DNA from: Escherichia phage AV125 | Reading direction: 5' to 3' (one strand) | Sequence record: OR352955.1 | DNA length: 64,000 bases | Part shown: in pieces, positions 11,601 through 54,524 of the stretch | How positions within the stretch are numbered: position 1 is the stretch's first letter | Layout of the letters: every line of letters starts with the position of its first letter | Notes under the pieces: generated by a model | The model's input: the letters and a program-made list of their open reading frames with translations, nothing else | Database searches by the model: none | What the model was told of the DNA's origin: nothing | Position numbers and translations under genes: made by a program

Positions 11601-13589
11601 TTGTTAGAAATTAACGCCTCCAGAATTAGTAACGTGGTTACGTTTAAGGTGGACAAGAACAGTCTCAAGGAAGCAAAAGATGCCGTGTTGAGTGTTCAGA
11701 AGTTTGCAAATAAAATGCAACCCACTATGAACATGACCAAGTTTAGACAACAAATGAAAGAGATTGAGCGTGAACTTAAGAAAGCTCAAACTCAAAGCCA
11801 AAAACCTATGCGAGCACCTACTCCCGCTGGAGCGGGTGCTCCTGTAGGTGGTTCTGGTAGACCTAGAACTCCTAAAACCCCACAAGGTAGAGAAGAAGAA
11901 AAAGCTCGTAAAGCGGCTGAACGCGAAGCTAAAGCAGCAGCACGTAGGGAAGACTTAGGTAATCTTCGTTTACAGAACTTTAACTATCGAGCAAGAGCAT
12001 TTAGTAAAGCCAGTCCTGGAGCTATGCAAGAAGCTAGAGACGTTATGGGTAAAGCTGTAGAGCAATACAAAAAGGGTGAAATAACTCTTCAACGTATGAA
12101 CCAAGCTCTTGCTCACCAGTTAGATGCTTTACGCAGATCTCATCGTGAAAAGAATGCTGAAATAGAAGATGAGGTTCGCGGTCGTCGCCGTATTCGTAGA
12201 GAGCTAGAAGCAGAAGCTAAAATGCGTATACGTATGCGAAATCGTGAACTTAGGGATATAGAACGAAATCGTAAGCGTGAATTGGCACAACAAAAACGTG
12301 ATCGTGATCGTAGATATGGACAACTAAAAGAAGGTGCAGCAGGTCTTAATCCACGTATGATTGCATCCTCTTTGATAGGTGCTGGACTGTTTGCAGGTGG
12401 TTCTGTAGTAGGTAACACGTTGATGAATACTAACGAAAGAATTAAACTTGTAAGCCGTGGTGCTGAAAACGTACAGACAAACGCCAACTCTATTTTAACA
12501 ATGACAGCTTGGGGTGAACAGAACGGTGTAGACTCTGCAAATATTATTAAATCAATAGATAATATTAAAGACGTTCGTGAACGTCTTGGTAATACCGTTT
12601 TAGCTGCAAAGTGGAATGAGAAAGAAGGGAAGTGGAAAGGCGGTGATAATGGCATAACTGACATTATGAACTTGTTTGGATGGAATCCAGAACAGCTTAA
12701 ACCTTTACAGAACGATCCTTTAGCTTTTATTCAGGCTACTGTTAATGAAGGTGAGCGTCGAGGTATGAACTCTGCTCAAATCGGGCGACTTCTTGAAAAC
12801 CTTGGTGATGACCTTATGCACTACCAACGTATGTTTAGTAAAAACGGCGAAGGCTACAATGAAACATTGAAAATGCTTCAAAGAACAGGTGCAACATTAA
12901 CTCAAGAACAAATAGATGCTTCTAAAGAGTTTACTCGTTTTGCTGCAACAGTTCAGCTTGTAGGTCAAGGTATGCAGAACCACTTCTTAGAGGGTTTTGT
13001 GAAAGCCTTACCTAAAGATGATTCTTGGTTGGATAACGTTAAAGTGCTAGATCAGTTTGCCAAAGATTTAGGTGAAGAACTTGGTAAGACAACAGTTCAA
13101 TTAGGAGGTTTTGCTAAAGAATTGGGAGATGGTTTCGGATCTTTTACCAATTGGCTTAAAGAAACATTCCCAGATACCTTCGGAGACAACACAGATCCTA
13201 ATAAATCTATGGCACAAAAAGCATACGAGGCAACGCAAAGTGGAGATAGCAATCCTGTAGCAGATTGGTTGTACAATTTAACAGGTATTGATACACAAGA
13301 CATTGGTCGTATGTGGAGAGGAGAACAAACAAGGACACGTGCTTTTGGATTTGGTAATCCTCTTGAAGATTTACGTGAATCAGCCTATACACCTAACGTA
13401 AGTTTGGCTCGTAATCAACCTGTTGTTGAGAATACGGTAGCAATACCAAGTGATCTTATCAAAGTTACGATCAGCCCTTCTTCAGAGTTTGGAAATATTC
13501 TTGATGCAAGAATTCAAAATAGCGGAAATAGCATTTTCCAACGTTTATCTCTTTCAACTCTAAGTGGACAATCTAACACTGGTGGTTAA
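11601..13589 (+). CDS. Tail tape measure protein
   Basis: 662-aa ORF; N-terminal half Arg/Glu/Ala-rich helical; central hydrophobic Gly-rich segment (IASSLIGAGLFAGGSVVGN); TTG start after GAGGA; sits after the chaperone pair; followed by a terminator. Confidence 0.6.
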   Translation: MLEINASRISNVVTFKVDKNSLKEAKDAVLSVQKFANKMQPTMNMTKFRQQMKEIERELKKAQTQSQKPMRAPTPAGAGAPVGGSGRPRTPKTPQGREEEKARKAAEREAKAAARREDLGNLRLQNFNYRARAFSKASPGAMQEARDVMGKAVEQYKKGEITLQRMNQALAHQLDALRRSHREKNAEIEDEVRGRRRIRRELEAEAKMRIRMRNRELRDIERNRKRELAQQKRDRDRRYGQLKEGAAGLNPRMIASSLIGAGLFAGGSVVGNTLMNTNERIKLVSRGAENVQTNANSILTMTAWGEQNGVDSANIIKSIDNIKDVRERLGNTVLAAKWNEKEGKWKGGDNGITDIMNLFGWNPEQLKPLQNDPLAFIQATVNEGERRGMNSAQIGRLLENLGDDLMHYQRMFSKNGEGYNETLKMLQRTGATLTQEQIDASKEFTRFAATVQLVGQGMQNHFLEGFVKALPKDDSWLDNVKVLDQFAKDLGEELGKTTVQLGGFAKELGDGFGSFTNWLKETFPDTFGDNTDPNKSMAQKAYEATQSGDSNPVADWLYNLTGIDTQDIGRMWRGEQTRTRAFGFGNPLEDLRESAYTPNVSLARNQPVVENTVAIPSDLIKVTISPSSEFGNILDARIQNSGNSIFQRLSLSTLSGQSNTGG

Positions 13590-40582: not shown

Positions 40583-43500
40583 TCAATGACAGGATGCCCA
40601 GGAATTACCCACATCATATCCGGCAGTAAGCTGAACGTTAAGATTGTAAAATTCTCCAGCCTTAGTAACAGCTAAAGCAGCAAGTTCACCTGCCCGACTA
40701 TAGGCTGTAAACCATCCACCTTTGGGAGATTCATGAATGTTAGCCCAAATTTGCCCTGTCTCTTTTTCCTTATTATGCTTCCATTCTTCGACTTTAGCAA
40801 GACATTCTTTATCAATTTTCTTTTGTTCTTCAGGATCGTCTACTTTCTTCCAACCTAATGATTCAGGTGAAAACCATTTGAATTCTACAAGGTTACGAGA
40901 AACTTCAAGCTGGGCTTCATCGTGGTATGCAATCATTTGTTGCACGAAGTCTTTATTCTTCCAGTCATCTTTAAAGAAGTCAACACTTAGCCCTTCTTCT
41001 TCGATCATGTCGTCATAAATAACCATTGCACGTTTAGCACAGATAACCCCACCACTTTGGAACAGAGAGTTAAGAATCGCGTGAGCAGAACGAGTAGGAA
41101 CCTTACGACCGTCAATACCCAAAACATACTGTTTACCAGTCTTAACCCAGAAATCGTTTAAACGTTCTTTAAGACGCGCCAGTGGGAATGCAGCTTCCCA
41201 GAAAGCATCGAACACCAGTTGCCCTGTGTATTTATCGCTACCAATTGTTTTAGCAACCTTGTCTGCTTGTGCACCATAAGTGATCCCGTATTTAACAGAT
41301 TTCGCCGGACTACGTTCAAACTTACGCCCAATAGTATCTGTAATACGTTTTGCCATCATGGTATGAACATCGTTAGGCTTCTCTAACAAGAGAGCGTTAC
41401 AGTATTCATGAGGCTCCGGTTCGTAGCGCCAACAGTTTCCTGTGATGGTAATGCAGTCTTTCTGACGCATGACCCACGTACCAAGTTCTGTTTGTGGACA
41501 CCAAACATCCTCTACACCCCACTCTTCAATAGTCAAACTTTGAACAGGAATGTGAGAGCGGTTAGTCAATGTTGCCACTTTTACTTTCTGCTCTTTTGTA
41601 TTGAAAGCTACAGAGATATTGCCTCCATGCACCAGGTACGAGGCAGTTAAAGCTGCTTCAAAAAGTTCACCTGGGTTCTGCGCCCAACGCCAAACAGGTT
41701 TTTGTTTATGTTCATGCCAGTAACCATCTGCAATCAAGAAACCTTCCAAGAAAGCTACACGCTCGGCATGAGACATATTAACTACACGCTCTACCCACGG
41801 AACATCCCATTTACCTTGTTGAACAGAAGTTAAACTATTTACCTGATCTTGTTCCATGTTAAATGGAGCATTACAAATAATATTATCTCCTGTGCAAAGA
41901 TCGGCAGTTGTTCTGACTTTAGGCACATAAGTATTCCCTTTACTACGGGTATTAACATACCAACGGTGATCTGCTGTTGCACGGTAAGTGTGTGATTTCC
42001 CTTTAATCTCAAACGTCTTACTATTTTTATAGAAGACCTTACCTTTTACTTTAGTCCATTCTTTCATACCTGTTTCAGCATTGTACCCTAAAATCTCATC
42101 CCCTTCCTTCAGGTCGTGATATCCTACCCAACCTTTACGAGTCAAAGCTTGAGCATCCATCGGCACACAGTAATGCGACTCAATCTTTGCTTCCAAAGAG
42201 TCGAAGTCATAACCGATCTGGAAGTATTTAGGAACCTCTACACCAAACAAGTTACGCATCTCCCATCCAAACAAAGATGTGACACGAGGAATATTAGCTA
42301 CAGACCTATGCTTCATACGAGAGGTTGCAGCATCACATGTAGCTGCTGGGGTAGGAATACGACCATCCGCCCTTACTGCGGCTAAGAAACCTTTATCGTA
42401 TTCTTGATCTTCTTCGTCTTCTTCCCAATCGGCACCACCACCTAAAATAGAGTTCCTACGGTGTTTATACGTTAAGTATTCTACAATCTGTGTAGCATAA
42501 GGAAATTTCTCACCCAAAGCTTGCAGGTTAGGACAAATTTCTTTTTCCTGACCTTTGGTAAAACATGGGTTAGTCAATACTTTAAGACCGCGACCTTTAC
42601 CTTTTGCTATACGCTCTTGAATCTTCCTTTCCAAGGTTTCCGGTGTGCACTCCAGATGATCACAACGATCCTGACAAAAATTAGAAGATAGAGTTTGCTC
42701 AACGTAAGCTCGAATACCTTTCTGAAGTTCTTCCTCGCTCTTTTTAATCTTGGTGCCAGATTTAAGAGTCAAGTCTTTATCTTTATATTCAGACGGTACC
42801 CAACCTAACCCTACAAGCCAGTTTTTAATATGGGTTGTATCGTTCAATGTTGCAGGGATATTAGGATCACACAAAGGCTCATCTGCTGCAACTGGCAGTT
42901 TCCACTCTTTCCCCAACATAACTAACCACCAATCTCCATCCCTCTCTTCCAAATGACCATCATGTTTCTTAGCAAAATTGATCATATGGTTAGTTGGCTC
43001 TAAGTTCTTTTTAATTTGCAACTTAGGTGGAATAAAAGCCTTAAGATAGCCTTTTGTTGCTGGTTTAGGTGGCAAAATAGGCTCAACGAGTAAACGAAGA
43101 CGCTCCATTTCTGCATCCAAAAAAGCAAGGTTCTCTTCTGCTTGCTTCATGTTAAAAGCAAATCCACGGTGTTCCTGGCGTGTAATAATGTCTGCTACAC
43201 GTTGTTCAAGTTCAAATGGACCTTCCCATTTATCATAATCACCCCACTCTTCCATAAGGTAATTATATACGCTTGTATTAGCTTTGTTGTCATAGATACA
43301 GTAATAAAGCATATCCGCAGCAAAAGTCTTAAATCGATCTTCTTCTGGAATCTCTTTACGGAAATCTATTTTTACATCACCACCTGCTTTTCGAGAAAGT
43401 GCTGCCAAGCTATGTCCTGATTTGCCCTCAATCTTTCGATCTGGGTTTAACACTTTACTCAAAATCAAGGAGTCAATAAGTTTTACCTTATTTTTGCCCC

Positions 43501-43915
43501 ACGTATTATATTTAACACTGTAATCTAATCCATAAAACAGTTTTGTAGCCAACCAGTCGTAGTTGATACCGTTGTGAGCCACAGCCATTTCAACCAGATA
43601 TTCAGGCTTGTCTTCAAAATAACCTTCATGATTAATAAAGTCTGGGAAATCTTTTAGTTGAAAATGCGTGTAATCTTGCGCCACATACTCTTTAAGAACA
43701 TATGTGTATTTACCATCTGACTCTTCATAAGGACGCCCATCAAAGATGTATTTAGGGCCATCGTGGAAAGCTACTATTTCTCCTGTTTCATGGTTCTCTA
43801 AGACAATACAGTGCATTTGAAATGTGTCTTTGAGACGATAAGGACTAGCTAAATAATCAATAGTGTCATTATTCAACAATCCGTTTGCTTCAATATCCCA
43901 TGTAAACTTACTCAC
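40583..43915 (-). CDS. Family A DNA polymerase with 3'-5' exonuclease domain, interrupted by an intein-like insertion
   Basis: Exo I motif DIEANGL; polymerase motif A DFDSLEAKI, motif B RSPAKSVKYGITYG, motif C YHDEAQLEV; about 245 extra residues between motifs A and B; GTG start overlapping the upstream stop. Confidence 0.75.
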   Translation of the reverse strand: MSKFTWDIEANGLLNNDTIDYLASPYRLKDTFQMHCIVLENHETGEIVAFHDGPKYIFDGRPYEESDGKYTYVLKEYVAQDYTHFQLKDFPDFINHEGYFEDKPEYLVEMAVAHNGINYDWLATKLFYGLDYSVKYNTWGKNKVKLIDSLILSKVLNPDRKIEGKSGHSLAALSRKAGGDVKIDFRKEIPEEDRFKTFAADMLYYCIYDNKANTSVYNYLMEEWGDYDKWEGPFELEQRVADIITRQEHRGFAFNMKQAEENLAFLDAEMERLRLLVEPILPPKPATKGYLKAFIPPKLQIKKNLEPTNHMINFAKKHDGHLEERDGDWWLVMLGKEWKLPVAADEPLCDPNIPATLNDTTHIKNWLVGLGWVPSEYKDKDLTLKSGTKIKKSEEELQKGIRAYVEQTLSSNFCQDRCDHLECTPETLERKIQERIAKGKGRGLKVLTNPCFTKGQEKEICPNLQALGEKFPYATQIVEYLTYKHRRNSILGGGADWEEDEEDQEYDKGFLAAVRADGRIPTPAATCDAATSRMKHRSVANIPRVTSLFGWEMRNLFGVEVPKYFQIGYDFDSLEAKIESHYCVPMDAQALTRKGWVGYHDLKEGDEILGYNAETGMKEWTKVKGKVFYKNSKTFEIKGKSHTYRATADHRWYVNTRSKGNTYVPKVRTTADLCTGDNIICNAPFNMEQDQVNSLTSVQQGKWDVPWVERVVNMSHAERVAFLEGFLIADGYWHEHKQKPVWRWAQNPGELFEAALTASYLVHGGNISVAFNTKEQKVKVATLTNRSHIPVQSLTIEEWGVEDVWCPQTELGTWVMRQKDCITITGNCWRYEPEPHEYCNALLLEKPNDVHTMMAKRITDTIGRKFERSPAKSVKYGITYGAQADKVAKTIGSDKYTGQLVFDAFWEAAFPLARLKERLNDFWVKTGKQYVLGIDGRKVPTRSAHAILNSLFQSGGVICAKRAMVIYDDMIEEEGLSVDFFKDDWKNKDFVQQMIAYHDEAQLEVSRNLVEFKWFSPESLGWKKVDDPEEQKKIDKECLAKVEEWKHNKEKETGQIWANIHESPKGGWFTAYSRAGELAALAVTKAGEFYNLNVQLTAGYDVGNSWASCH
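41435..42169 (-). other. Intein-like insertion (Hint domain with a single LAGLIDADG-like motif) within the DNA polymerase
   Basis: Begins with Cys583 right after motif A (ESHY|CVPMDAQ); TxxH block (TADH); LAGLIDADG-like AFLEGFLIADGYW (nt 41723-41752); ends ...ITGN followed by Cys828 as +1 nucleophile. Other family A polymerases have about 30 residues here. Confidence 0.5.
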
Positions 43916-44709
43916 TATTCCTCCTTTCTAATGTTCTCCAGAACCCACTGAAGTTCTTTTAAACTTAAACTTCTTACTCCCGCAGTTTTACTAGCTTCAG
44001 CTTTAAGTAACGGGTAAGCCTCAATGATACGCGTTTTAAGATCAGAAGTCAAGGCTTTTAAAAAATAGGTAGATGCTTCAGATAAAGAATCTTCTTCTGA
44101 TAACACTTTACCTGCACTTGCTCCCGCTCTCCTAACGGCTATATCGTAGTCTTTACTGTTACCTAATACGAATAGTCGATTCTCTCCTAAAACAACGGGA
44201 GAACGCTTCTCGTTGCGTTTAATCCATATCTGGAATACACAAGGAACATCCCAAGGTTCTCCATGAAGAATAAAAGATCCTTTTGGACATTCTTCTTCGT
44301 AAAGAAGATGCATATGGGGATTTAGTTTGTGTGCAAAAAAGATTTTTTGAAATGTGCGAGGCAAGATAAAACAAATACCACCTTCGTTATCCAGCATTTC
44401 AGCACAATGGTTAAAGAATTTAATGGCAAGACTAGCATTTTTTCCAAATGGAGGATTACCGACAAAAGCAGTTACACTACCAACAGACTCAACAGATTGA
44501 GCTAAAAAATCTGCCTCAATACAATCTTCAAACTTAGGGTCAATATCAAAAGAAGTTATGTTTTTAAAACAAGAAGAGAAAGCTCCTTCTCCCGCAGATG
44601 GTTCTACGTAGTTAGCTTCCTCTCCAAAAATTTCTTTGATCTTATCACATAAGAACCCCGCATAAGCGGGGTTAGTGTAATATTGATCAAGTGTGTTCAA
44701 CTTGCTCAA
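43915..44709 (-). CDS. N6-adenine DNA methyltransferase (gamma-class motif order; orphan)
   Basis: Motifs DQYYTNPAYAGFL, EPSAGEGAF (AdoMet-binding) and VGNPPFGK (NPPF catalytic motif); no adjacent restriction endonuclease; stop overlaps the polymerase start. Confidence 0.5.
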   Translation of the reverse strand: MSKLNTLDQYYTNPAYAGFLCDKIKEIFGEEANYVEPSAGEGAFSSCFKNITSFDIDPKFEDCIEADFLAQSVESVGSVTAFVGNPPFGKNASLAIKFFNHCAEMLDNEGGICFILPRTFQKIFFAHKLNPHMHLLYEEECPKGSFILHGEPWDVPCVFQIWIKRNEKRSPVVLGENRLFVLGNSKDYDIAVRRAGASAGKVLSEEDSLSEASTYFLKALTSDLKTRIIEAYPLLKAEASKTAGVRSLSLKELQWVLENIRKEE

Positions 44710-44718
44710 TAGTCCTCC

Positions 44719-45150
44719 TTAGTTGTTAGCGAACTCAATAGTGAGGTCCACTTTACCATCATCAGAAATAACCATGTTTTTGGTATTTTTAAAGATGATA
44801 TCTACTTTACCTTCACTTACACGACAGAATGCAACACCATCTGCAACTTTATCAATATAATATTTGTAAGAAAGAATACCCACTTTACTACGACCAGCAC
44901 CTTTTGTGAAAGAAGGGCTTACATCGAAACGGAAACCTTTAGAAGAAACAACACGGTAAGAACGTCCAGTTGGAAGATGTTCAATAACAGAGACATTGTT
45001 CTCAACAACTTTTACAGCAAACTCTTCAGGATGATCCTCAACAATCATGTGTGGGATGGCAAACGCCAACGCTTGTTTGTGTTTAATAACACCAGCACCC
45101 AGAGCACCAGCAGCTTTAACTTTTGCATTCAGATCGATTGTCATACGCAT
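44719..45150 (-). CDS. Hypothetical protein (first gene of the promoter-proximal MTase/polymerase operon)
   Basis: 143-aa ORF with AGGAG RBS, downstream of a strong minus-strand promoter. Confidence 0.3.
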   Translation of the reverse strand: MRMTIDLNAKVKAAGALGAGVIKHKQALAFAIPHMIVEDHPEEFAVKVVENNVSVIEHLPTGRSYRVVSSKGFRFDVSPSFTKGAGRSKVGILSYKYYIDKVADGVAFCRVSEGKVDIIFKNTKNMVISDDGKVDLTIEFANN

Positions 45151-45184
45151 TTTTTACTTCTCCTCTTGTTTGGTTGATGAGACA

Positions 45185-45213
45185 AGTATAAGTCCCTTCC
45201 GTAAAGTTGTCAA
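45185..45213 (-). promoter_or_regulatory. sigma70-like promoter (TTGACA-17-TATACT) on minus strand
   Basis: Minus-strand -35 TTGACA (plus 45208-45213), 17-nt spacer, -10 TATACT (plus 45185-45190); between the primase-helicase terminator and the next gene. Confidence 0.55.
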
Positions 45214-45229
45214 CAGGTATTTTTAATAA

Positions 45230-45245
45230 AAGGGCCGAAGCCCTT
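45230..45245 (-). terminator. Terminator hairpin at 3' end of primase-helicase gene
   Basis: Stem AAGGGC / GCCCTT with loop CGAA, followed on the minus strand by TTATTAAAAAT; overlaps the stop codon. Confidence 0.4.
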
Positions 45246-47022
45246 AATAATTGCTATCCGTAGGCAAATTAGCAGGATTGTTGAAATACTGCTCTTTGTC
45301 ATGCAGAGTTGCAGTTCTAATGTCATAGTAAAACTGCCCTGCCGGACCAGTTTCCGAGAACTCACGGTTTTTTAGGATAAAGCAATGAGTCGTATTGCGT
45401 TCTACAGGGTCTTCAGCGGCTTTATCTCGTTCCAAAGCCAAGGTAATACCAGCACCTTTAGCCAAGAAACTACTACCCATTGCATCGTCCTCTGTTAAGT
45501 GTTCATTGCCACCATTAGCCGATTTCTTAACGTGTGAGATGACGATAATAGTTATAGCATACTCTTTCATGATGCGCTTCAACCATGTTGCTAACTCTTC
45601 CTGGGCTTGAACATCCATACCAGAAAGCAAATCAGAATAAGGGTCGATAACAAGAATTGTTACTCCAAAATAGATGATCATCTCCAAAACTTTTTCTTTG
45701 ATAGACTCCACATCTGCTCCACGATCATCACACACATAAAAACGTGGTGATCCATCTTCTCTTTCGTAAAAATCTAGGATTTTTTCTTTATTCTCTTCCA
45801 AGATTTGAAATTTCTCTTCCGGTGTTTTCCTGTGTAGAGGAATATGCAGGAACGAGGACAACAGGTTACGAGAATATTTCTTATAAGTTGCTTCCAAGGA
45901 CAGAATACCTAGGGTATGTTCTGGGTGCGCAACAATAATATGTTTGGTGATCTCGTTCACCATCAAAGTTTTACCGATACTGGTCTTTGCCAGGATGACT
46001 GTAATCTCTTCCTCTACTAAACCACCACCCAGCATATTTGCAGCAACACGCATAAAAGGAGGCAAGGTAATCATCTTGGATTCCAAGCATTCTAATGCAG
46101 CTTCATACAAGACATTAGAAGCATAAACACCTGCTGGGGTGTATAGACGAGCACTCCAAAAAGCTTTTACGAAATCTTTTGCACGACCTTCTTCCAGATA
46201 CTGATTGGCATCCTTAAGATCCATCTGCATACGGTAGACTTTGTTACGAGGCAGCACCTTAACAATATTTTCAAATGCCTCATTACCTGCTTTGTCATTA
46301 TCCATGCAAACAATAATCTTCTTAAATTTTTCAAAGAAAGGGTATTGTGCCTGAACTTGTTTATACATACTGGTTTCACCAGTTGTGCCACTAACTACTG
46401 CTGGAAGTTCATATTTGTTGTCCAAGTTTTCAGACAGCATTTGATAAGCTGCCAGAGCATCGTGTTCACCACCTGTAATTACCACAGTATGAGAACGGTC
46501 TGCAAAACGAATTTGTCCAAAAAGATCTACATCTTTACCTACTTGACCAATAGGTTTACTGAAATCTTTAGGATGAATACGACGCTTAAAACCAACCAAT
46601 TCTTTACCGATGGTAGTTGGATATAAACAACTTTCTACTACCATCTGATCCCCTTCCTGACGGTATTCATAACGAACACCATAGAAAGATGAAACTTTTT
46701 CTTTAATGCCTCGATAACCACGTGGGTTGGTTGATGTTTCTTGAACAATTTTACGATGAATCTGTTTATTAAATTCCGAACCCACAATCTCCTCCTCTTC
46801 TTCTAAAACTTCACCATTTTCTCGTAACCATTCTACGCTAGGAATAGTGTATTCACACGCAAAGCACTTAGCACCTTTATGCTCTCCATTAGAATCTAAT
46901 CCATAAACCATCAGGTTATTACGAGAGCGATCCTTGCCATTTTTCATGCAGCGCGGACAACCTGTATGTCCTTCCTTGCTAAGATCAACATCAAATCCAT
47001 ATTTAGTTATAATGTGCGACAC
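45244..47022 (-). CDS. Bifunctional DNA primase-helicase (T7 gp4-like)
   Basis: N-terminal zinc finger CPRC...CFAC; TOPRIM-like VVITGGEHDALAAY and VCMDNDKAGNEA; helicase Walker A KTSIGKT and Walker B ILVIDPYSD. Confidence 0.7.
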   Translation of the reverse strand: MSHIITKYGFDVDLSKEGHTGCPRCMKNGKDRSRNNLMVYGLDSNGEHKGAKCFACEYTIPSVEWLRENGEVLEEEEEIVGSEFNKQIHRKIVQETSTNPRGYRGIKEKVSSFYGVRYEYRQEGDQMVVESCLYPTTIGKELVGFKRRIHPKDFSKPIGQVGKDVDLFGQIRFADRSHTVVITGGEHDALAAYQMLSENLDNKYELPAVVSGTTGETSMYKQVQAQYPFFEKFKKIIVCMDNDKAGNEAFENIVKVLPRNKVYRMQMDLKDANQYLEEGRAKDFVKAFWSARLYTPAGVYASNVLYEAALECLESKMITLPPFMRVAANMLGGGLVEEEITVILAKTSIGKTLMVNEITKHIIVAHPEHTLGILSLEATYKKYSRNLLSSFLHIPLHRKTPEEKFQILEENKEKILDFYEREDGSPRFYVCDDRGADVESIKEKVLEMIIYFGVTILVIDPYSDLLSGMDVQAQEELATWLKRIMKEYAITIIVISHVKKSANGGNEHLTEDDAMGSSFLAKGAGITLALERDKAAEDPVERNTTHCFILKNREFSETGPAGQFYYDIRTATLHDKEQYFNNPANLPTDSNY

Positions 47023-47034
47023 TTTGTTCTCCTG

Positions 47035-47313
47035 TTAAAATGGTTCGTTAGTCTCCATCATATATTCTGCTTCTAGTTCTTCCATGTGCTTTCTAAATTG
47101 GAAAGCAATTTCTGCTACAGTTACATTTAAATCTTTTTCAAAAACTTCTGTAGATCCTTCATAAAAACGAATACCGTCAATTAAAAGCCCTCCGTGGTAA
47201 TCCCAATCGCTTTCACGAGAAAGTGGATTAGGTTCTTCATAATAGTAATCCACCTCCACGACCAAGGCTTTCCCGTTACGAGTGGTGTATTCAAAATCAA
47301 AAGTGTTAATCAT
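47035..47313 (-). CDS. Hypothetical protein
   Basis: 92-aa ORF, coupled to the upstream gene. Confidence 0.3.
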   Translation of the reverse strand: MINTFDFEYTTRNGKALVVEVDYYYEEPNPLSRESDWDYHGGLLIDGIRFYEGSTEVFEKDLNVTVAEIAFQFRKHMEELEAEYMMETNEPF

Positions 47314-48257
47314 TATAGCTCCTCAAATAAAAGTCTACGACGCTCATTCAACACATCAATGTGATAATGAGTCCTGACATACTTAGCTAATGCTAATCCT
47401 TTCTCCATGCAAACATCGGGAGCACTTGATAAGTATTCCGTAATATCTTTCCACTCGGAAGGTGTTTCAGCAAAGAATAACAAATCTTTAAACTCTTGTG
47501 TATGATAATTCTCACGAGGAGAGCAGATTAAAGGTAAACCCTTAGCACCTGCCTCAAGAATTTTAAGATTGCTTTTTGCATTATTAAACACGTTATCGAT
47601 CAATGGTGCAAGACTGATTTGATGACCATCGTAAGATTCCATGTAGTTGGCATATGGTCTTACACCTTCATAAACACAAGTTGGTGCTACATTTTCCCTG
47701 ATTAAAGACCATTCACGACTACTTAAAACTTCAGAATCCCTACGAAAACCACATATTGTAAGATCTTTACCAAAATCGGGCAAGATAGCCAAATCTTGTT
47801 TATGTGTTTCACTTCCAGCCCAGACTAATGGAGTTTTGGAGTAGCGATCACGGGTCAACACAAATTGACCTTCATCGTAAGGAAGTCCATTAGGGATTAT
47901 GTGCACATTATCATTGTATTGTGAAAGTTCAACTTGCAAGGCAGGTGTCGTAGTTGTAACAAGATCACTGTGCTCTAAAAACCATTTTAAATGTTCACGA
48001 ATACCTGATTCAAAAATACCTTCTAACATGTGTCCTTTTGGAATAACTAAAGAGTCATCCAAATCCATAACCATTTTAAAGCCCAGGTTTTTAAGGGCTA
48101 AAAAGCCCTCTTTACCTTTTGTTGGCACTCCGTTAAAAACGAAAACGTTGTGTTTAGGTTGTGAAGAGAACTGCCTTGAGTAAGGCAGCACTACCCTATG
48201 GAAATCGCAGACACTATAATTGATTCCGTTACGATTGTCAAGAATTATTTGTCCCAT
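47313..48257 (-). CDS. Glycosyltransferase (GT-B fold-like), paralog 1
   Basis: C-terminal motif KSNLKILEAGAKGLPLICS typical of GT-B donor-binding domains; paralogous to the adjacent gene. Confidence 0.45.
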   Translation of the reverse strand: MGQIILDNRNGINYSVCDFHRVVLPYSRQFSSQPKHNVFVFNGVPTKGKEGFLALKNLGFKMVMDLDDSLVIPKGHMLEGIFESGIREHLKWFLEHSDLVTTTTPALQVELSQYNDNVHIIPNGLPYDEGQFVLTRDRYSKTPLVWAGSETHKQDLAILPDFGKDLTICGFRRDSEVLSSREWSLIRENVAPTCVYEGVRPYANYMESYDGHQISLAPLIDNVFNNAKSNLKILEAGAKGLPLICSPRENYHTQEFKDLLFFAETPSEWKDITEYLSSAPDVCMEKGLALAKYVRTHYHIDVLNERRRLLFEEL

Positions 48258-48264
48258 ACTTCAC

Positions 48265-49251
48265 CTACAAACTTTCAATAACCTGGCGTCGCAATTCGTT
48301 TGCATCTGCCAGATTATAATGTGTTCGAACATGTTCCGCTAAGAACAAGCCGCGATCTTCCCGATAGTTCGGATTTCGAAGAAGCTTAACAATTTCGTAA
48401 TGCCATTCTGCTTTATTCTCTGCATAAGCAACAGCGCGAGCATCTACAGGGTTAAAATAAGGTAATACCTTAGAACAAACAATCGGAATACCTTTTGCCC
48501 CAGCTTCAAGGATTTTGAGATTACTTTTACAATTATTAAAATCATTATCTACCAAAGGAGCTATAGCAATAGCATGACTTTCGTAAACACTCATGTAATT
48601 ATCTAAATCTTTTACAGCAGCTTTATATTTGGCATTTGGTAAATTTCTACGGATCTTAATCCACTCTTGCCCTGTGATACTCTGCGATGCTTCATATCCT
48701 GCAATAGTAAGAAGTTCATCATCGAAAGTATTAGAGACTAGTCGTAAATCGGGTTCGTGACTAGCACCGCCAGCCCATACAACAGGGGTACCGGATGAAC
48801 GATCATTTGACAAAGTGAATTGTCCGCTATCAAAAGGAAGTGCATTTCGGATCACAACAACATTCCTATTTAAGTGACGGATCTTATATGCCAAATATTC
48901 CGTAGTCACAATGACCACATCGGCAAGCTTAACCATAGCTACAATAGCATGAGTGTTTGACTCATATAAACTTGCTAAATAATGTTCTGGATTAAGTTGG
49001 TAGAAATCATCTAAATCTACAACAATCTTAACACCTTGACGTTTCAGGGACAGAACATATTCTGCCCCTTTAGAATGAATACGGTTAAACACGACAACAT
49101 CTTTCTTAGGCTGAAAATTATTGTTGTTAAATGGTATAACAATACGATGATAATCACAACCACTGTGAGGTTTTGCATCAATTTTCAGTTTAGTCCATTT
49201 TTTATTTGACATGTGCCAGTGCCTCCTCATAAGAAATTCGGATTTTCCCAT
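48265..49251 (-). CDS. Glycosyltransferase (GT-B fold-like), paralog 2
   Basis: Collinear similarity to the 47313 gene (DYHRIVIPF vs DFHRVVLPY; KSNLKILEAGAKGIPIVCS). Confidence 0.45.
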   Translation of the reverse strand: MGKSEFLMRRHWHMSNKKWTKLKIDAKPHSGCDYHRIVIPFNNNNFQPKKDVVVFNRIHSKGAEYVLSLKRQGVKIVVDLDDFYQLNPEHYLASLYESNTHAIVAMVKLADVVIVTTEYLAYKIRHLNRNVVVIRNALPFDSGQFTLSNDRSSGTPVVWAGGASHEPDLRLVSNTFDDELLTIAGYEASQSITGQEWIKIRRNLPNAKYKAAVKDLDNYMSVYESHAIAIAPLVDNDFNNCKSNLKILEAGAKGIPIVCSKVLPYFNPVDARAVAYAENKAEWHYEIVKLLRNPNYREDRGLFLAEHVRTHYNLADANELRRQVIESL

Positions 49252-49885
49252 TTTTAATATCTTCTAAAGACGCTTTATATTCTTCCCAGTTAATGCCAAT
49301 AGCAGCTTCTTTCTCTTCTTTTGTCAGATTAGCAAAAGGCATAGGATTGTTTCCAAAAACATCGTCTGGGTGGATATAAGCCATGATACGAAGTGGACAA
49401 GGTATTGCCTGAATGCCCTGATTCAAACCAGCAGCTTTCAAACGGTGTACCCATTCAGCATCTTCAAAACCATAGCCGTGAGTGTAAGGGCGGAAATAAC
49501 CCATCTTCTCAACAACGGCACGAGAATACATTGCAAATTGACACATTGCAAGTTCCCAGAGAATAACTTCTCCTTTACTCCCAACAACTTTATCTTTGAA
49601 ATACTCCGGCATACCAAAGAAATCCCATCCTCCAGAGACAGCTTGATCTACAAAATATGTTTCCCATCCCTCCATGATTGGGTAGCAATCGTCGTCAAAA
49701 ATAAACCAATAATCATAACCTTCTTCATAAAACTGGTGCATAAGTTCATTCCTGGCGTAAGCTACACCTTTACGATCTGGATCGTTGAATATTCGAAAAT
49801 CTGCATGTGGATCTGTTACAAGATAGTCTTTAAGTGGACGGACACCTACAGTGATAACACCCACTCCGATTTTAATATTTTCCAT
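49202..49885 (-). CDS. Glycosyltransferase (GT-A fold-like, DxD)
   Basis: FIFDDDCYP (DxD) and YGFEDAEW motifs; the 3' end overlaps the next gene by about 50 nt. Confidence 0.45.
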   Translation of the reverse strand: MENIKIGVGVITVGVRPLKDYLVTDPHADFRIFNDPDRKGVAYARNELMHQFYEEGYDYWFIFDDDCYPIMEGWETYFVDQAVSGGWDFFGMPEYFKDKVVGSKGEVILWELAMCQFAMYSRAVVEKMGYFRPYTHGYGFEDAEWVHRLKAAGLNQGIQAIPCPLRIMAYIHPDDVFGNNPMPFANLTKEEKEAAIGINWEEYKASLEDIKNGKIRISYEEALAHVK

Positions 49886-49893
49886 TTTCTCTC

Positions 49894-50457
49894 CTAGATA
49901 GTTTTACTGTGATCGTGACAGTGTAATAAATGATGTATAGACCGTTGAGGATTTGTTTGACCTAATCTGTAAATGTGAAACAGATACATTCCCCGCATCA
50001 ATCCTAACCTTTTTCCTTTTTCATGTAAAGTGCGAGAGAAAATTAGGTCGAATTGGATAGATTTTTCTTCGAAAGGAATTTCATTCCACAATGATTTTCT
50101 AAAAAGCAAAAAGAAACCTGCCAGAGGTGTTCCGAAAGGAACTTCTTCAACACTCACTTTATGATATTCTCTTGCAATCTTAGCATATTCTATATGGTTT
50201 AGAATATTTGGATCATCGTTAATTTGGTTAGAGAAAAGCTGATAACCACTACCTAACCTGTTACAAGTTGCACCTATTACATCAAAAGGCGGGTTTGACA
50301 TAATAAGCTCTTCAAGCATAGATGGTTGATCAGGCAGGAGGAACATTGTATCGGTATCTCTTAAGCACACCCAACTATCATCTGGAAGAACGGCAATAGC
50401 TTCATTGATAGCCTTGCCGATATTTCCTGTCAGATAGGGAGTAATATAATAAATCAT
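49894..50457 (-). CDS. Putative glycosyltransferase (GT-A-like, DxD motif CLRDTDTMF)
   Basis: N-terminal YITPY..GNIGKAINEAI then DTD motif; fourth member of a glycosyltransferase cluster. Confidence 0.3.
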   Translation of the reverse strand: MIYYITPYLTGNIGKAINEAIAVLPDDSWVCLRDTDTMFLLPDQPSMLEELIMSNPPFDVIGATCNRLGSGYQLFSNQINDDPNILNHIEYAKIAREYHKVSVEEVPFGTPLAGFFLLFRKSLWNEIPFEEKSIQFDLIFSRTLHEKGKRLGLMRGMYLFHIYRLGQTNPQRSIHHLLHCHDHSKTI

Positions 50458-53986: not shown

Positions 53987-54524
53987 TTTTGAAGCCCAAA
54001 TCGTAAGCTTCTTTAGTGATCTTTTGCAACTCGCTTATAGGAAGTGTTACAAGAGGATCATCTTCTTCAATTTCCATCTTGTCATCTTCTGTTTCAATGA
54101 GAGTATTATGCACTTTATGATAAGGGTTGTCAACACGTTTAAACTTATTCTTTTCTGTGCTGAAGAAACAATCTGGATCTTCTTCACCATCACCCCAACC
54201 TTGATTAGGATCTCTGTCAGATTGTTCTGTAGGGATCTCACCTGTAAAGTACTCTTCCAGCACCATAGCGATGCCGTCCCTTGGATTTGAGGAATGCATC
54301 AAATCACAAACCTTACTCCAATCCATAGCCCAGTCGAACCGTTCACGAACGCCATTTTCATCCTCTTTTCCAGAGAAAACACAACCATAACTATCATAGT
54401 TGCCATACATCTCTTCAATAACAACACCGTCCTTCAAAAGAAAGAGGTAGCAAGGTGATCCGTCGAAAGAAGTAGAAAGGGCAGCTTTGCCCGATTCTTT
54501 GCACAAAAAGCTAAAACAACCCAT
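53961..54524 (-). CDS. Hypothetical acidic protein
   Basis: 187-aa ORF rich in Asp/Glu (EEDPDCFF, ETEDDKMEIEEDDP). Confidence 0.3.
   Translation of the reverse strand: MGCFSFLCKESGKAALSTSFDGSPCYLFLLKDGVVIEEMYGNYDSYGCVFSGKEDENGVRERFDWAMDWSKVCDLMHSSNPRDGIAMVLEEYFTGEIPTEQSDRDPNQGWGDGEEDPDCFFSTEKNKFKRVDNPYHKVHNTLIETEDDKMEIEEDDPLVTLPISELQKITKEAYDLGFKIGRGGMRV

Follow-up and report, generated by a model that had tools for sequence, protein, structure and literature searches.

The window analyzed here, a stretch of 64,000 nucleotides of phage DNA, derives from a Phapecoctavirus of the phAPEC8 group (99% identity to phAPEC8_ev052 and ESCO5), a virulent phage that infects E. coli. Every gene of the block under study is carried on the minus strand, as is every feature described below. 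In the direction of transcription, a primase-helicase gene of the upstream transcription unit (45244..47022; 592 aa; Pfam Toprim_2, E = 3.6e-09, and DnaB_C, E = 2.3e-15) is followed by an open reading frame (ORF) for a 143-aa protein of unknown function (44719..45150), by the TTG-initiated gene for a 264-aa protein that motifs, PADLOC profiles, and fold predict to be a gamma-class N6-adenine DNA methyltransferase (43915..44709), and by the GTG-initiated gene for a family A DNA polymerase of 1,110 aa (40583..43915; Pfam DNA_pol_A, E = 1.3e-11). The methyltransferase gene is a real and ordinary feature that public records already annotate as such, the existing label of its ortholog in Phapecoctavirus records being "putative DNA N6-adenine methyltransferase." The polymerase contains an intein-like insert of 245 aa (41435..42169), delimited by alignment with the 860-aa polymerase of the relative L012, which lacks the insert and to which the N terminus and both insert flanks align; matches of the insert to Intein_splicing and LAGLIDADG_3 were both below threshold.

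Transcription and translation signals

A sigma-70-type promoter, TTGACA-17-TATACT (45185..45213; −35 at 45213..45208 and −10 TATACT at 45190..45185), is fully intergenic and lies 35 nt 5' of the ATG of the 143-aa gene. It matches the consensus at 11 of 12 positions and was the top-scoring site in an 8-kb scan. Loose promoter-consensus matches in that scan occurred at the chance rate (21 versus 20 ± 5.3 expected), and the window is enriched in matches of at least 11/12 (10 versus 2.4 ± 1.3 in first-order Markov simulations). Transcription from this site would be expected to start near 45178. In L096, which represents a lineage at 89% identity, both hexamers are kept and the spacer has largely diverged; in the 59% lineage (L095), a promoter-like TTGACA-17-TAAGAT, read by eye, occupies the same place. 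Just upstream, a hairpin resembling an intrinsic terminator (AAGGGC-UUCG-GCCCUU at 45245..45230, then the U-rich tail UUAUU; 45223..45245 in all) overlaps the TAA stop codon of the primase-helicase gene, with a folding energy of −9.3 kcal/mol (z = −2.08). The terminator scan did not list it because the eight bases that follow the full stem include only four Ts, just under the T-run rule. The first-pass annotation had placed a strong promoter right after a primase-helicase terminator; both elements are present, and both are conserved in L096.

The order that it had given downstream, with the 143-aa gene directly 3' of the promoter and then the methyltransferase gene, agrees with the ORF coordinates. 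A ribosome-binding site (RBS) read from the sequence, AGAGGAG (45160..45166), lies 9 nt 5' of the ATG of the 143-aa gene, and its GAGGAG is kept in four of five aligned sequences, L014 having TTGAGGAG instead. The TAA stop codon of the 143-aa gene is fused with the methyltransferase RBS, GGAGG (44714..44721, likewise read from the sequence), and 9 nt separate the two genes. Within the methyltransferase gene, TTGACT-17-TATCAT (44024..44052; 10/12 match), some 110 nt before the polymerase GTG, has identical hexamers and five spacer changes in L096, weakly suggesting an internal promoter.

The methyltransferase and polymerase genes meet at AGGAGGAATAGTG (43913..43925), where the TAG stop codon (43917..43915) and the GTG start codon (43915..43913) have one base in common, 43915 (TAGTG), a junction identical in L096. 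The polymerase has its own RBS, AGGAGG, located within the 3' end of the methyltransferase gene 4 nt upstream of the GTG. The predicted fold leaves this RBS unpaired, the junction region has no unusual degree of structure (z = −0.73), and its folding revealed no structure that would enforce coupling. The stop/start overlap proposed earlier is thus real, but since the polymerase has a strong and unpaired RBS of its own, obligatory translational coupling is not supported, and the label "translationally coupled" should be read as describing the overlap alone.

The 143-aa protein matches phrog_9938, a family of unknown function (E = 9.8e-63), has no match in Pfam, NCBIfam, or PADLOC, and is represented only 21 times in a set of 1.8 billion proteins. 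Its gene is under purifying selection (dN/dS of 0.095 versus L096). The structure model is mediocre (pLDDT of 68, with only one of five models above 50), and a fold search gave no match (best E = 0.84). The gene also adjoins PolA upstream in close relatives that carry no methyltransferase gene (L012 to L015), and this uncharacterized protein, rather than the methyltransferase, is the truly conserved neighbor of the polymerase.

A compact predicted Type II-style adenine methyltransferase

The 264-aa protein carries, in linear order, motif X DQYYT (residues 8 to 12), motif I EPSAGEGAF (36 to 44), D55, DF (67 to 68), and motif IV NPPF (85 to 88, within FVGNPPFG), followed by a small conserved C-terminal domain (about residues 165 to 260) with RRxG..G and TAGVRS. 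Motifs X, I, II, III, and IV are invariant across 70 homologues; in motif IV, N85, P86, and P87 never vary and F88 reaches at least 90% conservation, in line with the earlier reading of an N6-adenine methyltransferase with an NPPF motif. The gene is under purifying selection (dN/dS of 0.094 versus L096), and 64 records match it along its whole length with at least 95% identity. The protein is part of a family that numbers more than 2,400 methyltransferase clusters, with members of about 260 aa.

Family assignment by profile depends on the collection. The protein matches the PADLOC MTase_II profile PDLC03255 with an E value of 1.6e-36, residues 21 to 254 covering profile positions 15 to 250 of 269, and E values below 1e-20 were also obtained with three other MTase_II profiles; Pfam and NCBIfam make no assignment. 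The Pfam matches are below threshold (Eco57I, 15.6 bits against a cutoff of 25.3), with no match to N6_Mtase, and the NCBIfam scan returned nothing. The label PF26055, precomputed on some homologues, was not reproduced at E values up to 0.1, and a single-sequence search of the PDB gave only chance-level matches. The AF2 model is confident (pLDDT of 94), and its top Foldseek matches in the PDB are the adenine DNA methyltransferases M.BseCI, StySJI HsdM, CamA, and M.TaqI, although these matches are confined to the catalytic domain and KsgA and TrmN score similarly. A fold search of viral models returned mostly unnamed proteins and no hint of specificity.

The closest characterized relatives in architecture are the M.TaqI/Eco57I-like enzymes, including M.BseCI and CamA, which have the same motif order (X, I, II, III, IV, and then a target-recognition domain), share EPxxGxGxF and NPP(F/Y) with the phage protein, and superpose on its Rossmann catalytic domain (Foldseek E values of 5e-8 to 1e-6). 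However, their recognition domain comprises at least about 170 aa, whereas the phage protein has a C-terminal domain of about 100 aa with no PDB counterpart (TM-scores of only 0.4 to 0.57), and the sequence-level match to M.TaqI is not significant (E = 0.34). The bacterial members of the PDLC03255 family (about 269 aa) are a closer likeness: they have the architecture of the phage protein and all of its catalytic and C-terminal invariant residues.

Two other identities were considered and rejected. T4/T2 Dam and the Dam-like enzymes of many coliphages are solitary, are expressed with replication genes, and are thought to protect progeny DNA. The phage protein resembles them in being a stand-alone adenine methyltransferase of a virulent phage, but Dam is an alpha-class enzyme with DPPY, another motif order, and the Pfam family MethyltransfD12, whereas the phage protein has the gamma-class motif order and no PF02086 match at E values up to 0.1. 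We found no evidence for GATC as its target. The label "DarB-like," given in record LR597654, reflects local similarity of the methyltransferase core (residues 5 to 121) to phrog_9133 (E = 1.1e-07), a profile of 1,259 positions against a protein of 264 aa. P1 DarB is a very large methyltransferase-helicase virion protein, and the viral fold matches include proteins of about 1,000 to 1,500 aa, some with helicase domains; as the phage protein consists of the methyltransferase domain only, the label is an overextension. Taken together, these comparisons support membership in the Type II restriction-modification (R-M) family of DNA amino-methyltransferases, and we regard the prediction that the protein is a DNA adenine methyltransferase as highly probable.

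Restriction partners and genomic neighborhoods

Bacterial homologues tie this family to restriction. In 16 of 78 bacterial loci, the methyltransferase gene is followed by an abutting same-strand ORF (median, 218 aa), and these ORFs are mutually homologous; all 14 full-length ones that were scanned match the REase_II profile PDLC03460 (best E = 5.3e-15). At two further loci (L059 and L085), other REase_II families lie beside the methyltransferase homologue, so that full-length homologues lie directly upstream of Type II restriction enzyme homologues in at least 18 of the 78 loci. The restriction enzyme-linked bacterial methyltransferases can be aligned with the phage protein from one end to the other, at 34 to 43% identity, and have the same invariant residues in the C-terminal domain. 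The two homologues on enterobacterial chromosomes lack an abutting ORF of nuclease size, and in PLSDB plasmids neither the partner nuclease family nor an informative methyltransferase homologue was found.

Unlike these bacterial members, the phage copy has no adjacent nuclease and lies next to the polymerase gene. A PDLC03460-type nuclease profile found no homologue in a six-frame translation of the window, a search that covered this one nuclease family in 64 kb of a genome of about 150 kb. The 143-aa protein was considered as a cognate nuclease and rejected: its gene exists in relatives without the methyltransferase, where such a nuclease would be unprotected. The methyltransferase, flanked by the 143-aa gene and PolA, is therefore solitary within the window, and its description as an orphan holds at that scale.

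Its proximity to the polymerase varies between lineages. The two genes adjoin here, but the close relatives L012 to L015 lack a methyltransferase gene and run from primase-helicase through the 143-aa gene to PolA, and in the 59% lineage a 35-nt gap precedes the polymerase gene, which has its own RBS and a promoter-like site (read by eye). In rV5-like phages, the ortholog comes immediately after a DnaQ-like exonuclease, and the 10.8-kb stretch examined there has 20 genes, none of them for a polymerase. On a 158-kb phage-like metagenomic contig, a single gene separates a homologue from an RNase T-like exonuclease downstream of it. The orthologs in the rV5-like phages and on this contig thus lie within DNA replication or nucleotide metabolism modules. 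Judged from these gene orders, the tie between methyltransferase and polymerase is lineage specific rather than a conserved functional coupling, and the methyltransferase gene is an accessory element that occupies a variable position in the replication operon.

Proposed role and competing explanations

We hypothesize that the 264-aa protein is an active, solitary gamma-class DNA N6-adenine methyltransferase of Type II style that protects progeny DNA. Host RNA polymerase would read the replication operon (the 143-aa gene, the methyltransferase, the polymerase, and downstream genes) from TTGACA-17-TATACT, and since the methyltransferase is the second gene of this operon, it would be produced while the phage DNA replicates. 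The N-terminal Rossmann domain would bind S-adenosylmethionine via EPSAGEGAF and D55, a flipped-out adenine would be methylated in the NPPF pocket, and the small, highly conserved C-terminal domain would recognize a particular short stretch of DNA. The methylation would then make progeny DNA resistant to restriction enzymes of the same specificity. A literature search turned up neither a methylome nor a biochemical study of this gene; the activity on DNA, the m6A product, the use of the promoter, and the protective role are ones that we infer. As a whole, this explanation seems to us somewhat better than an even bet. Protective self-methylation is a plausible predicted role, and we consider the chances evenly balanced that anti-restriction is the main one.

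Several observations bear on that last point. The window avoids many restriction sites, with GTAC strongly depleted (z = −13) and several 6-mers absent in palindrome statistics, which shows that the phage depends, in part at least, on a different strategy; such avoidance statistics cannot point to the target of the methyltransferase. EcoRI and EcoRV are both blocked by adenine methylation. Vequintavirus phages of the BASEL collection encode a 54%-identical ortholog, and these phages are reported as exceptionally susceptible to the six R-M systems tested, including the type II systems EcoRI and EcoRV (PMC8594841).

This sensitivity is among the observations that favor a different reading, in which the protein sets a DNA adenine mark for the phage's own transactions (replication, recombination, packaging, or gene timing) or for evasion of a defense other than R-M. 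The orthologs near DnaQ- or RNase T-type exonucleases or the polymerase, in replication or nucleotide modules of three phage lineages, fit such a mark, as do the two enterobacterial homologues without a nuclease partner and the lack of a plasmid match for the nuclease. However, the bacterial homologues are classical R-M partners, and the gene is dispensable in close relatives with the same replication module, which is a better fit to an accessory anti-defense function than to a core replication function. We regard this reading as unlikely, although it deserves to be taken seriously. A further reading, suggested by the repeated placement beside a proofreading exonuclease or polymerase, makes the enzyme a replisome partner that sets a replication-coupled self-mark on nascent phage DNA rather than serving classical anti-restriction; if true, it would account for the broad R-M sensitivity of phages with the gene, but we consider it quite improbable.

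It is slightly less probable still that the protein belongs with the RNA N6-adenosine methyltransferases of METTL5/COG2263 type and acts on host or phage rRNA or tRNA. The NPPF motif occurs also in RNA m6A and m2G enzymes, and METTL5 and Ta1320 share with the phage protein both NPPF and the N-terminal motif (L/D)QY-T. In a sequence-profile search of solved structures, Ta1320 (E = 1.5e-4) and METTL5 (E = 3e-3) ranked ahead of M.TaqI; several homologues are labeled "predicted RNA methylase" by JGI, and one GenBank record names the ortholog "RNA methylase." Yet the METTL5 match is limited to the catalytic core (profile positions 4 to 127), and METTL5 and Ta1320, which are about 200 aa long and consist of a single domain, have no C-terminal domain, no pairing with restriction enzymes, and no Type II profile match. 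The phage protein has an additional conserved C-terminal domain that is covered by the Type II methyltransferase profile, its homologues are paired with restriction endonucleases, and its genomic context is DNA replication.

The least probable explanation, that the protein is the modification half of a phage restriction-like system whose nuclease, encoded elsewhere in the phage, degrades unmethylated host DNA while the methyltransferase shields phage DNA from it, draws on the R-M partnerships of the bacterial homologues, on the 64-kb extent of the nuclease search, and on a 190-aa ORF that comes after a distant phage homologue (L009) and matches REase_II weakly (E = 1.1e-3), but R-M genes are normally adjacent, the window has no PDLC03460-type homologue, and the 143-aa gene occurs in relatives without the methyltransferase.

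The findings described here leave the current understanding of phage anti-restriction unchanged. The comparison brings out a bona fide R-M methyltransferase family that neither Pfam nor NCBIfam captures and that has a very compact recognition domain. Phapecoctaviruses such as ESCO5 and phAPEC8 have a broad host range in E. coli, and several were isolated on avian-pathogenic strains; if the restriction systems to which the phage DNA is immune were known, their host range would be easier to predict.

The methyltransferase family and its bacterial relatives

Pfam returned only a sub-threshold Eco57I match for the 264-aa NPPF protein (43915..44709, minus strand; METHYLTRANSFERASE), an NCBIfam scan gave no match, and PHROGs places it in phrog_5172, labeled "unknown function"; the family comprises 2,465 clusters at an E value of ≤1e-3. 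In a 70-member alignment, DQYYT, EPSAGxGxF, D55, DF, and NPPF, the motifs of gamma-class amino-methyltransferases, are invariant or nearly so, and a C-terminal region containing RRVG..G and TAGVRS is also conserved. Among such enzymes, NPPF goes with N6-adenine rather than N4-cytosine chemistry, and the motif indicates that this is the probable chemistry here.

Whether the substrate is DNA or RNA was less easily read from the catalytic core. The top PDB fold matches to the AF2 model (pLDDT 94, pTM 0.89) were the adenine DNA methyltransferases M.BseCI, StySJI HsdM, CamA, and M.TaqI (E values of 5e-8 to 1e-6), with KsgA, DIMT1, and TrmN close behind and superposition limited to the catalytic domain (TM 0.4 to 0.57). 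In sequence profile searches, the RNA enzymes Ta1320 (1.5e-4) and METTL5 (3e-3), matching in the catalytic core only, outranked M.TaqI (0.34), and independent evidence was therefore needed. It came from the PADLOC MTase_II profile PDLC03255 (269 positions), which matched residues 21 to 254 with an E value of 1.6e-36 (three more MTase_II profiles matched, each at <1e-20), and from the pairing of bacterial homologs with restriction enzymes, which together settle the choice in favor of DNA. Thus, the DNA adenine methyltransferase assignment of the first-pass annotation, for which Pfam and NCBIfam offered no significant match, is supported by the PADLOC profile and the nuclease pairing.

Searching one genome per prokaryotic species among bacterial and archaeal assemblies, we identified homologs at 78 loci, plus one identical copy (L016). 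At 16 of the 78 loci, a homologous same-strand ORF (median, 218 aa) abuts or overlaps the methyltransferase gene downstream, and all 14 full-length ORFs scanned from this group match the REase_II profile PDLC03460 (best E value, 5.3e-15). Directly downstream of the homologs at L059 and L085 are matches to REase_II profiles PDLC03538 (6e-11) and PDLC03550 (1.2e-6), respectively. The restriction-enzyme-linked methyltransferases align with the phage protein end to end (34 to 43% identity) and retain the C-terminal invariants R194, G196, G200, Y215, G244, S247, and E252. The profile match, nuclease pairing, and shared C terminus mark the family members as true Type II R-M methyltransferases whose predicted recognition domain is unusually small and conserved.

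Two loci have further features. At L007 (3701..8404; Poseidonibacter ostreae), the homolog and its 199-aa nuclease partner lie beside a Type I or IIG methyltransferase and an S subunit; the whole cluster seems to interrupt a gene for an amino-acid permease, and with transposases close by it is suggestive of a mobile defense island. On the phage contig L009, which carries the homolog P0085, an adenylosuccinate-synthetase-family gene (12288..13523) adjoins rIIA- and rIIB-like genes and could encode a PurZ-type enzyme for 2-aminoadenine DNA.

For this well-recorded phage genus, the gene is nothing out of the ordinary. The surrounding 1.9 kb is 99.4% identical to Escherichia phages phAPEC8_ev052 and ESCO5 and at least 95% identical in 64 records, nearly all Phapecoctavirus (Stephanstirmvirinae). 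The prediction is already public, since these records label the gene "putative DNA N6-adenine methyltransferase," "DNA methyltransferase," "DarB-like anti-restriction," or "hypothetical protein"; we found no experimental study of it in the literature.

Gene layout and the 143-aa neighbor

All genes here lie on the minus strand, and the layout proposed from first reading was confirmed. The primase-helicase gene (45244..47022; Toprim and DnaB_C domains) ends in a terminator-like hairpin, AAGGGC-UUCG-GCCCUU (45245..45230) followed by UUAUU, which contains its TAA and folds at −9.3 kcal/mol (z = −2.1); a terminator scan left it unlisted because its T-run rule was narrowly missed. Within the following 93-nt intergenic gap, 35 nt 5' of the ATG of the 143-aa gene, is TTGACA-17-TATACT (45213..45208 and 45190..45185), the top promoter match in an 8-kb scan. 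Loose matches in that scan occurred at the chance rate (21 versus 20 ± 5.3), while sigma-70-type matches of at least 11/12 were about fourfold enriched in the window (10 versus 2.4 ± 1.3 simulated), all 10 with a perfect TTGACA. These lie at 1489, 13627, and 25019 on the plus strand and at 54133, 52737, 48241, 45213, 35572, 27211, and 22741 on the minus strand; three (35572, 27211, and 22741) face opposite to the genes around them, with no same-strand ORF downstream.

The metagenomic relative L096 (methyltransferase, 89% identical) retains the hairpin and both hexamers, with a largely changed 17-nt spacer. Alignments read by eye place TTGACA-17-TAAGAT at the equivalent position in a lineage with 59% identity (L095) and weaker promoter-like sites in L012 and L014, relatives lacking the methyltransferase. 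This pattern argues that the predicted signals are functional.

The 143-aa ORF (44719..45150) has a GAGGAG ribosome-binding site, and its TAA stop is contiguous with the GGAGG that precedes the methyltransferase ORF, whose TTG start is supported by the MSK..LDQYYT N terminus conserved among homologs. Both genes are under strong purifying selection (dN/dS versus L096, 0.094 for the methyltransferase and 0.095 for the 143-aa gene). The 143-aa protein had no match in Pfam, NCBIfam, or PADLOC and is of unknown function in PHROGs; its family has only 21 representatives among 1.8 billion proteins, with an invariant PSxTKGxGR loop, and a search with its mediocre model (pLDDT 68) gave no fold match. 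Its position just 5' of PolA is constant, including in relatives without the methyltransferase, and we conjecture that it is an unrecognized replication accessory factor. That same occurrence led us to reject it as a hidden cognate nuclease. With only the 143-aa and polymerase genes as neighbors, and no PDLC03460-type nuclease in a six-frame translation of the 64-kb window (best E value, 0.27; genome, ~150 kb), the description of the methyltransferase as an orphan was borne out within the window.

Four consecutive ORFs 5' of the primase-helicase gene (47313..50457, minus strand), two of them encoding ~315 to 330 aa, correspond to four adjacent annotated glycosyltransferases of ESCO5; their target could be either DNA or a surface glycan. 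Phapecoctaviruses have a complete dTDP-rhamnose pathway, and DNA glycosylation has been speculated (PMC7552041, on Danish wastewater phages).

The link to the polymerase

The stop codon of the methyltransferase gene, TAG, overlaps the GTG of the family A polymerase gene (40583..43915, minus strand) by one base at 43915 (AGGAGGAATAGTG), an arrangement that would permit re-initiation at the GTG. The junction is identical in L096, and the polymerase N terminus is alignable from residue 1 to that of L012. The overlap claimed at first reading stands, but a dependence of polymerase synthesis on it finds no support: the polymerase has its own AGGAGG, unpaired in the predicted fold (junction structure is unremarkable; z = −0.73), and the arrangement varies between relatives. 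In addition, a 10/12 promoter-like TTGACT-17-TATCAT (44024..44052, minus strand) inside the methyltransferase gene, ~110 nt 5' of the polymerase start, has identical hexamers and five spacer changes in L096 and may give the polymerase its own transcript.

In metagenomic loci L012 to L015 (143-aa homolog, 50 to 57% identical), the glycosyltransferase, primase-helicase, 143-aa, and PolA genes still form one module, with an unrelated 112-aa ORF or nothing in the methyltransferase slot. In the 59% lineage, a 141-aa gene is followed by the methyltransferase and then PolA, but 35 nt separate the last two genes, and the polymerase gene is preceded by a ribosome-binding site of its own and, by eye, TTGACA-17-TAGAGT. 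In rV5-like Vequintavirus phages, a 54% ortholog follows a DnaQ-like exonuclease gene amid EndoVII, thymidylate synthase, and NrdA genes, and the 10.8 kb around it, with 20 genes, include no polymerase gene; on a 158-kb phage-like metagenomic contig, the gene is near those for UvrD, dCMP deaminase, and an RNase T-like exonuclease. The methyltransferase is therefore an accessory cassette in a slot whose content varies; it is the 143-aa protein that consistently accompanies the polymerase. The proposed coupling of methyltransferase and polymerase is a lineage-specific arrangement, and the link is only weakly meaningful.

The polymerase ORF also has a 245-aa in-frame insert (41435..42169; C583 to N827, followed by C828), absent from the 860-aa L012 polymerase (75% identical). 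With a LAGLIDADG-like LEGFLIADGYW motif and sub-threshold Intein_splicing (E value, 0.0033) and LAGLIDADG_3 matches, the insert resembles an intein that contains a homing endonuclease, although it ends in GN and not in the usual HN.

Proposed self-methylation and restriction-site avoidance

Solitary phage methyltransferases are usually explained by coexpression with replication genes, leading to methylation of nascent DNA. Here, a host-type promoter shared with replication genes would lead to synthesis of the enzyme as replication proceeds, and nascent phage DNA would then be methylated. Protective self-methylation, as originally proposed, is the best explanation and a reasonable inference, with support that is indirect and partly negative.

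The 54% ortholog is encoded by several BASEL phages (RudolfGeigy, HeinrichReichert, MaxBurger, and WalterGehring), and BASEL Vequintavirus phages were reported to be exceptionally susceptible to R-M systems in a test of six, EcoKI, EcoCFT_I, EcoRI, EcoRV, EcoCFT_II, and EcoP1_I (PMC8594841). For the ortholog, this sensitivity excludes the EcoRI and EcoRV sites as targets, as well as adenine methylation that is nonspecific, and is compatible with protection of another short site.

In the window, GAATTC occurs 17 times and GATATC 26 times. GTAC is strongly depleted (53 versus 200 expected; z = −13); AATT, TATA, CTAG, and CATG are depleted too; GGATCC, CAGCTG, CCATGG, TCCGGA, and TGGCCA do not occur, and CTGCAG occurs once. 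The window thus displays strong avoidance of restriction sites, a second antirestriction strategy of this phage and perhaps its main one.
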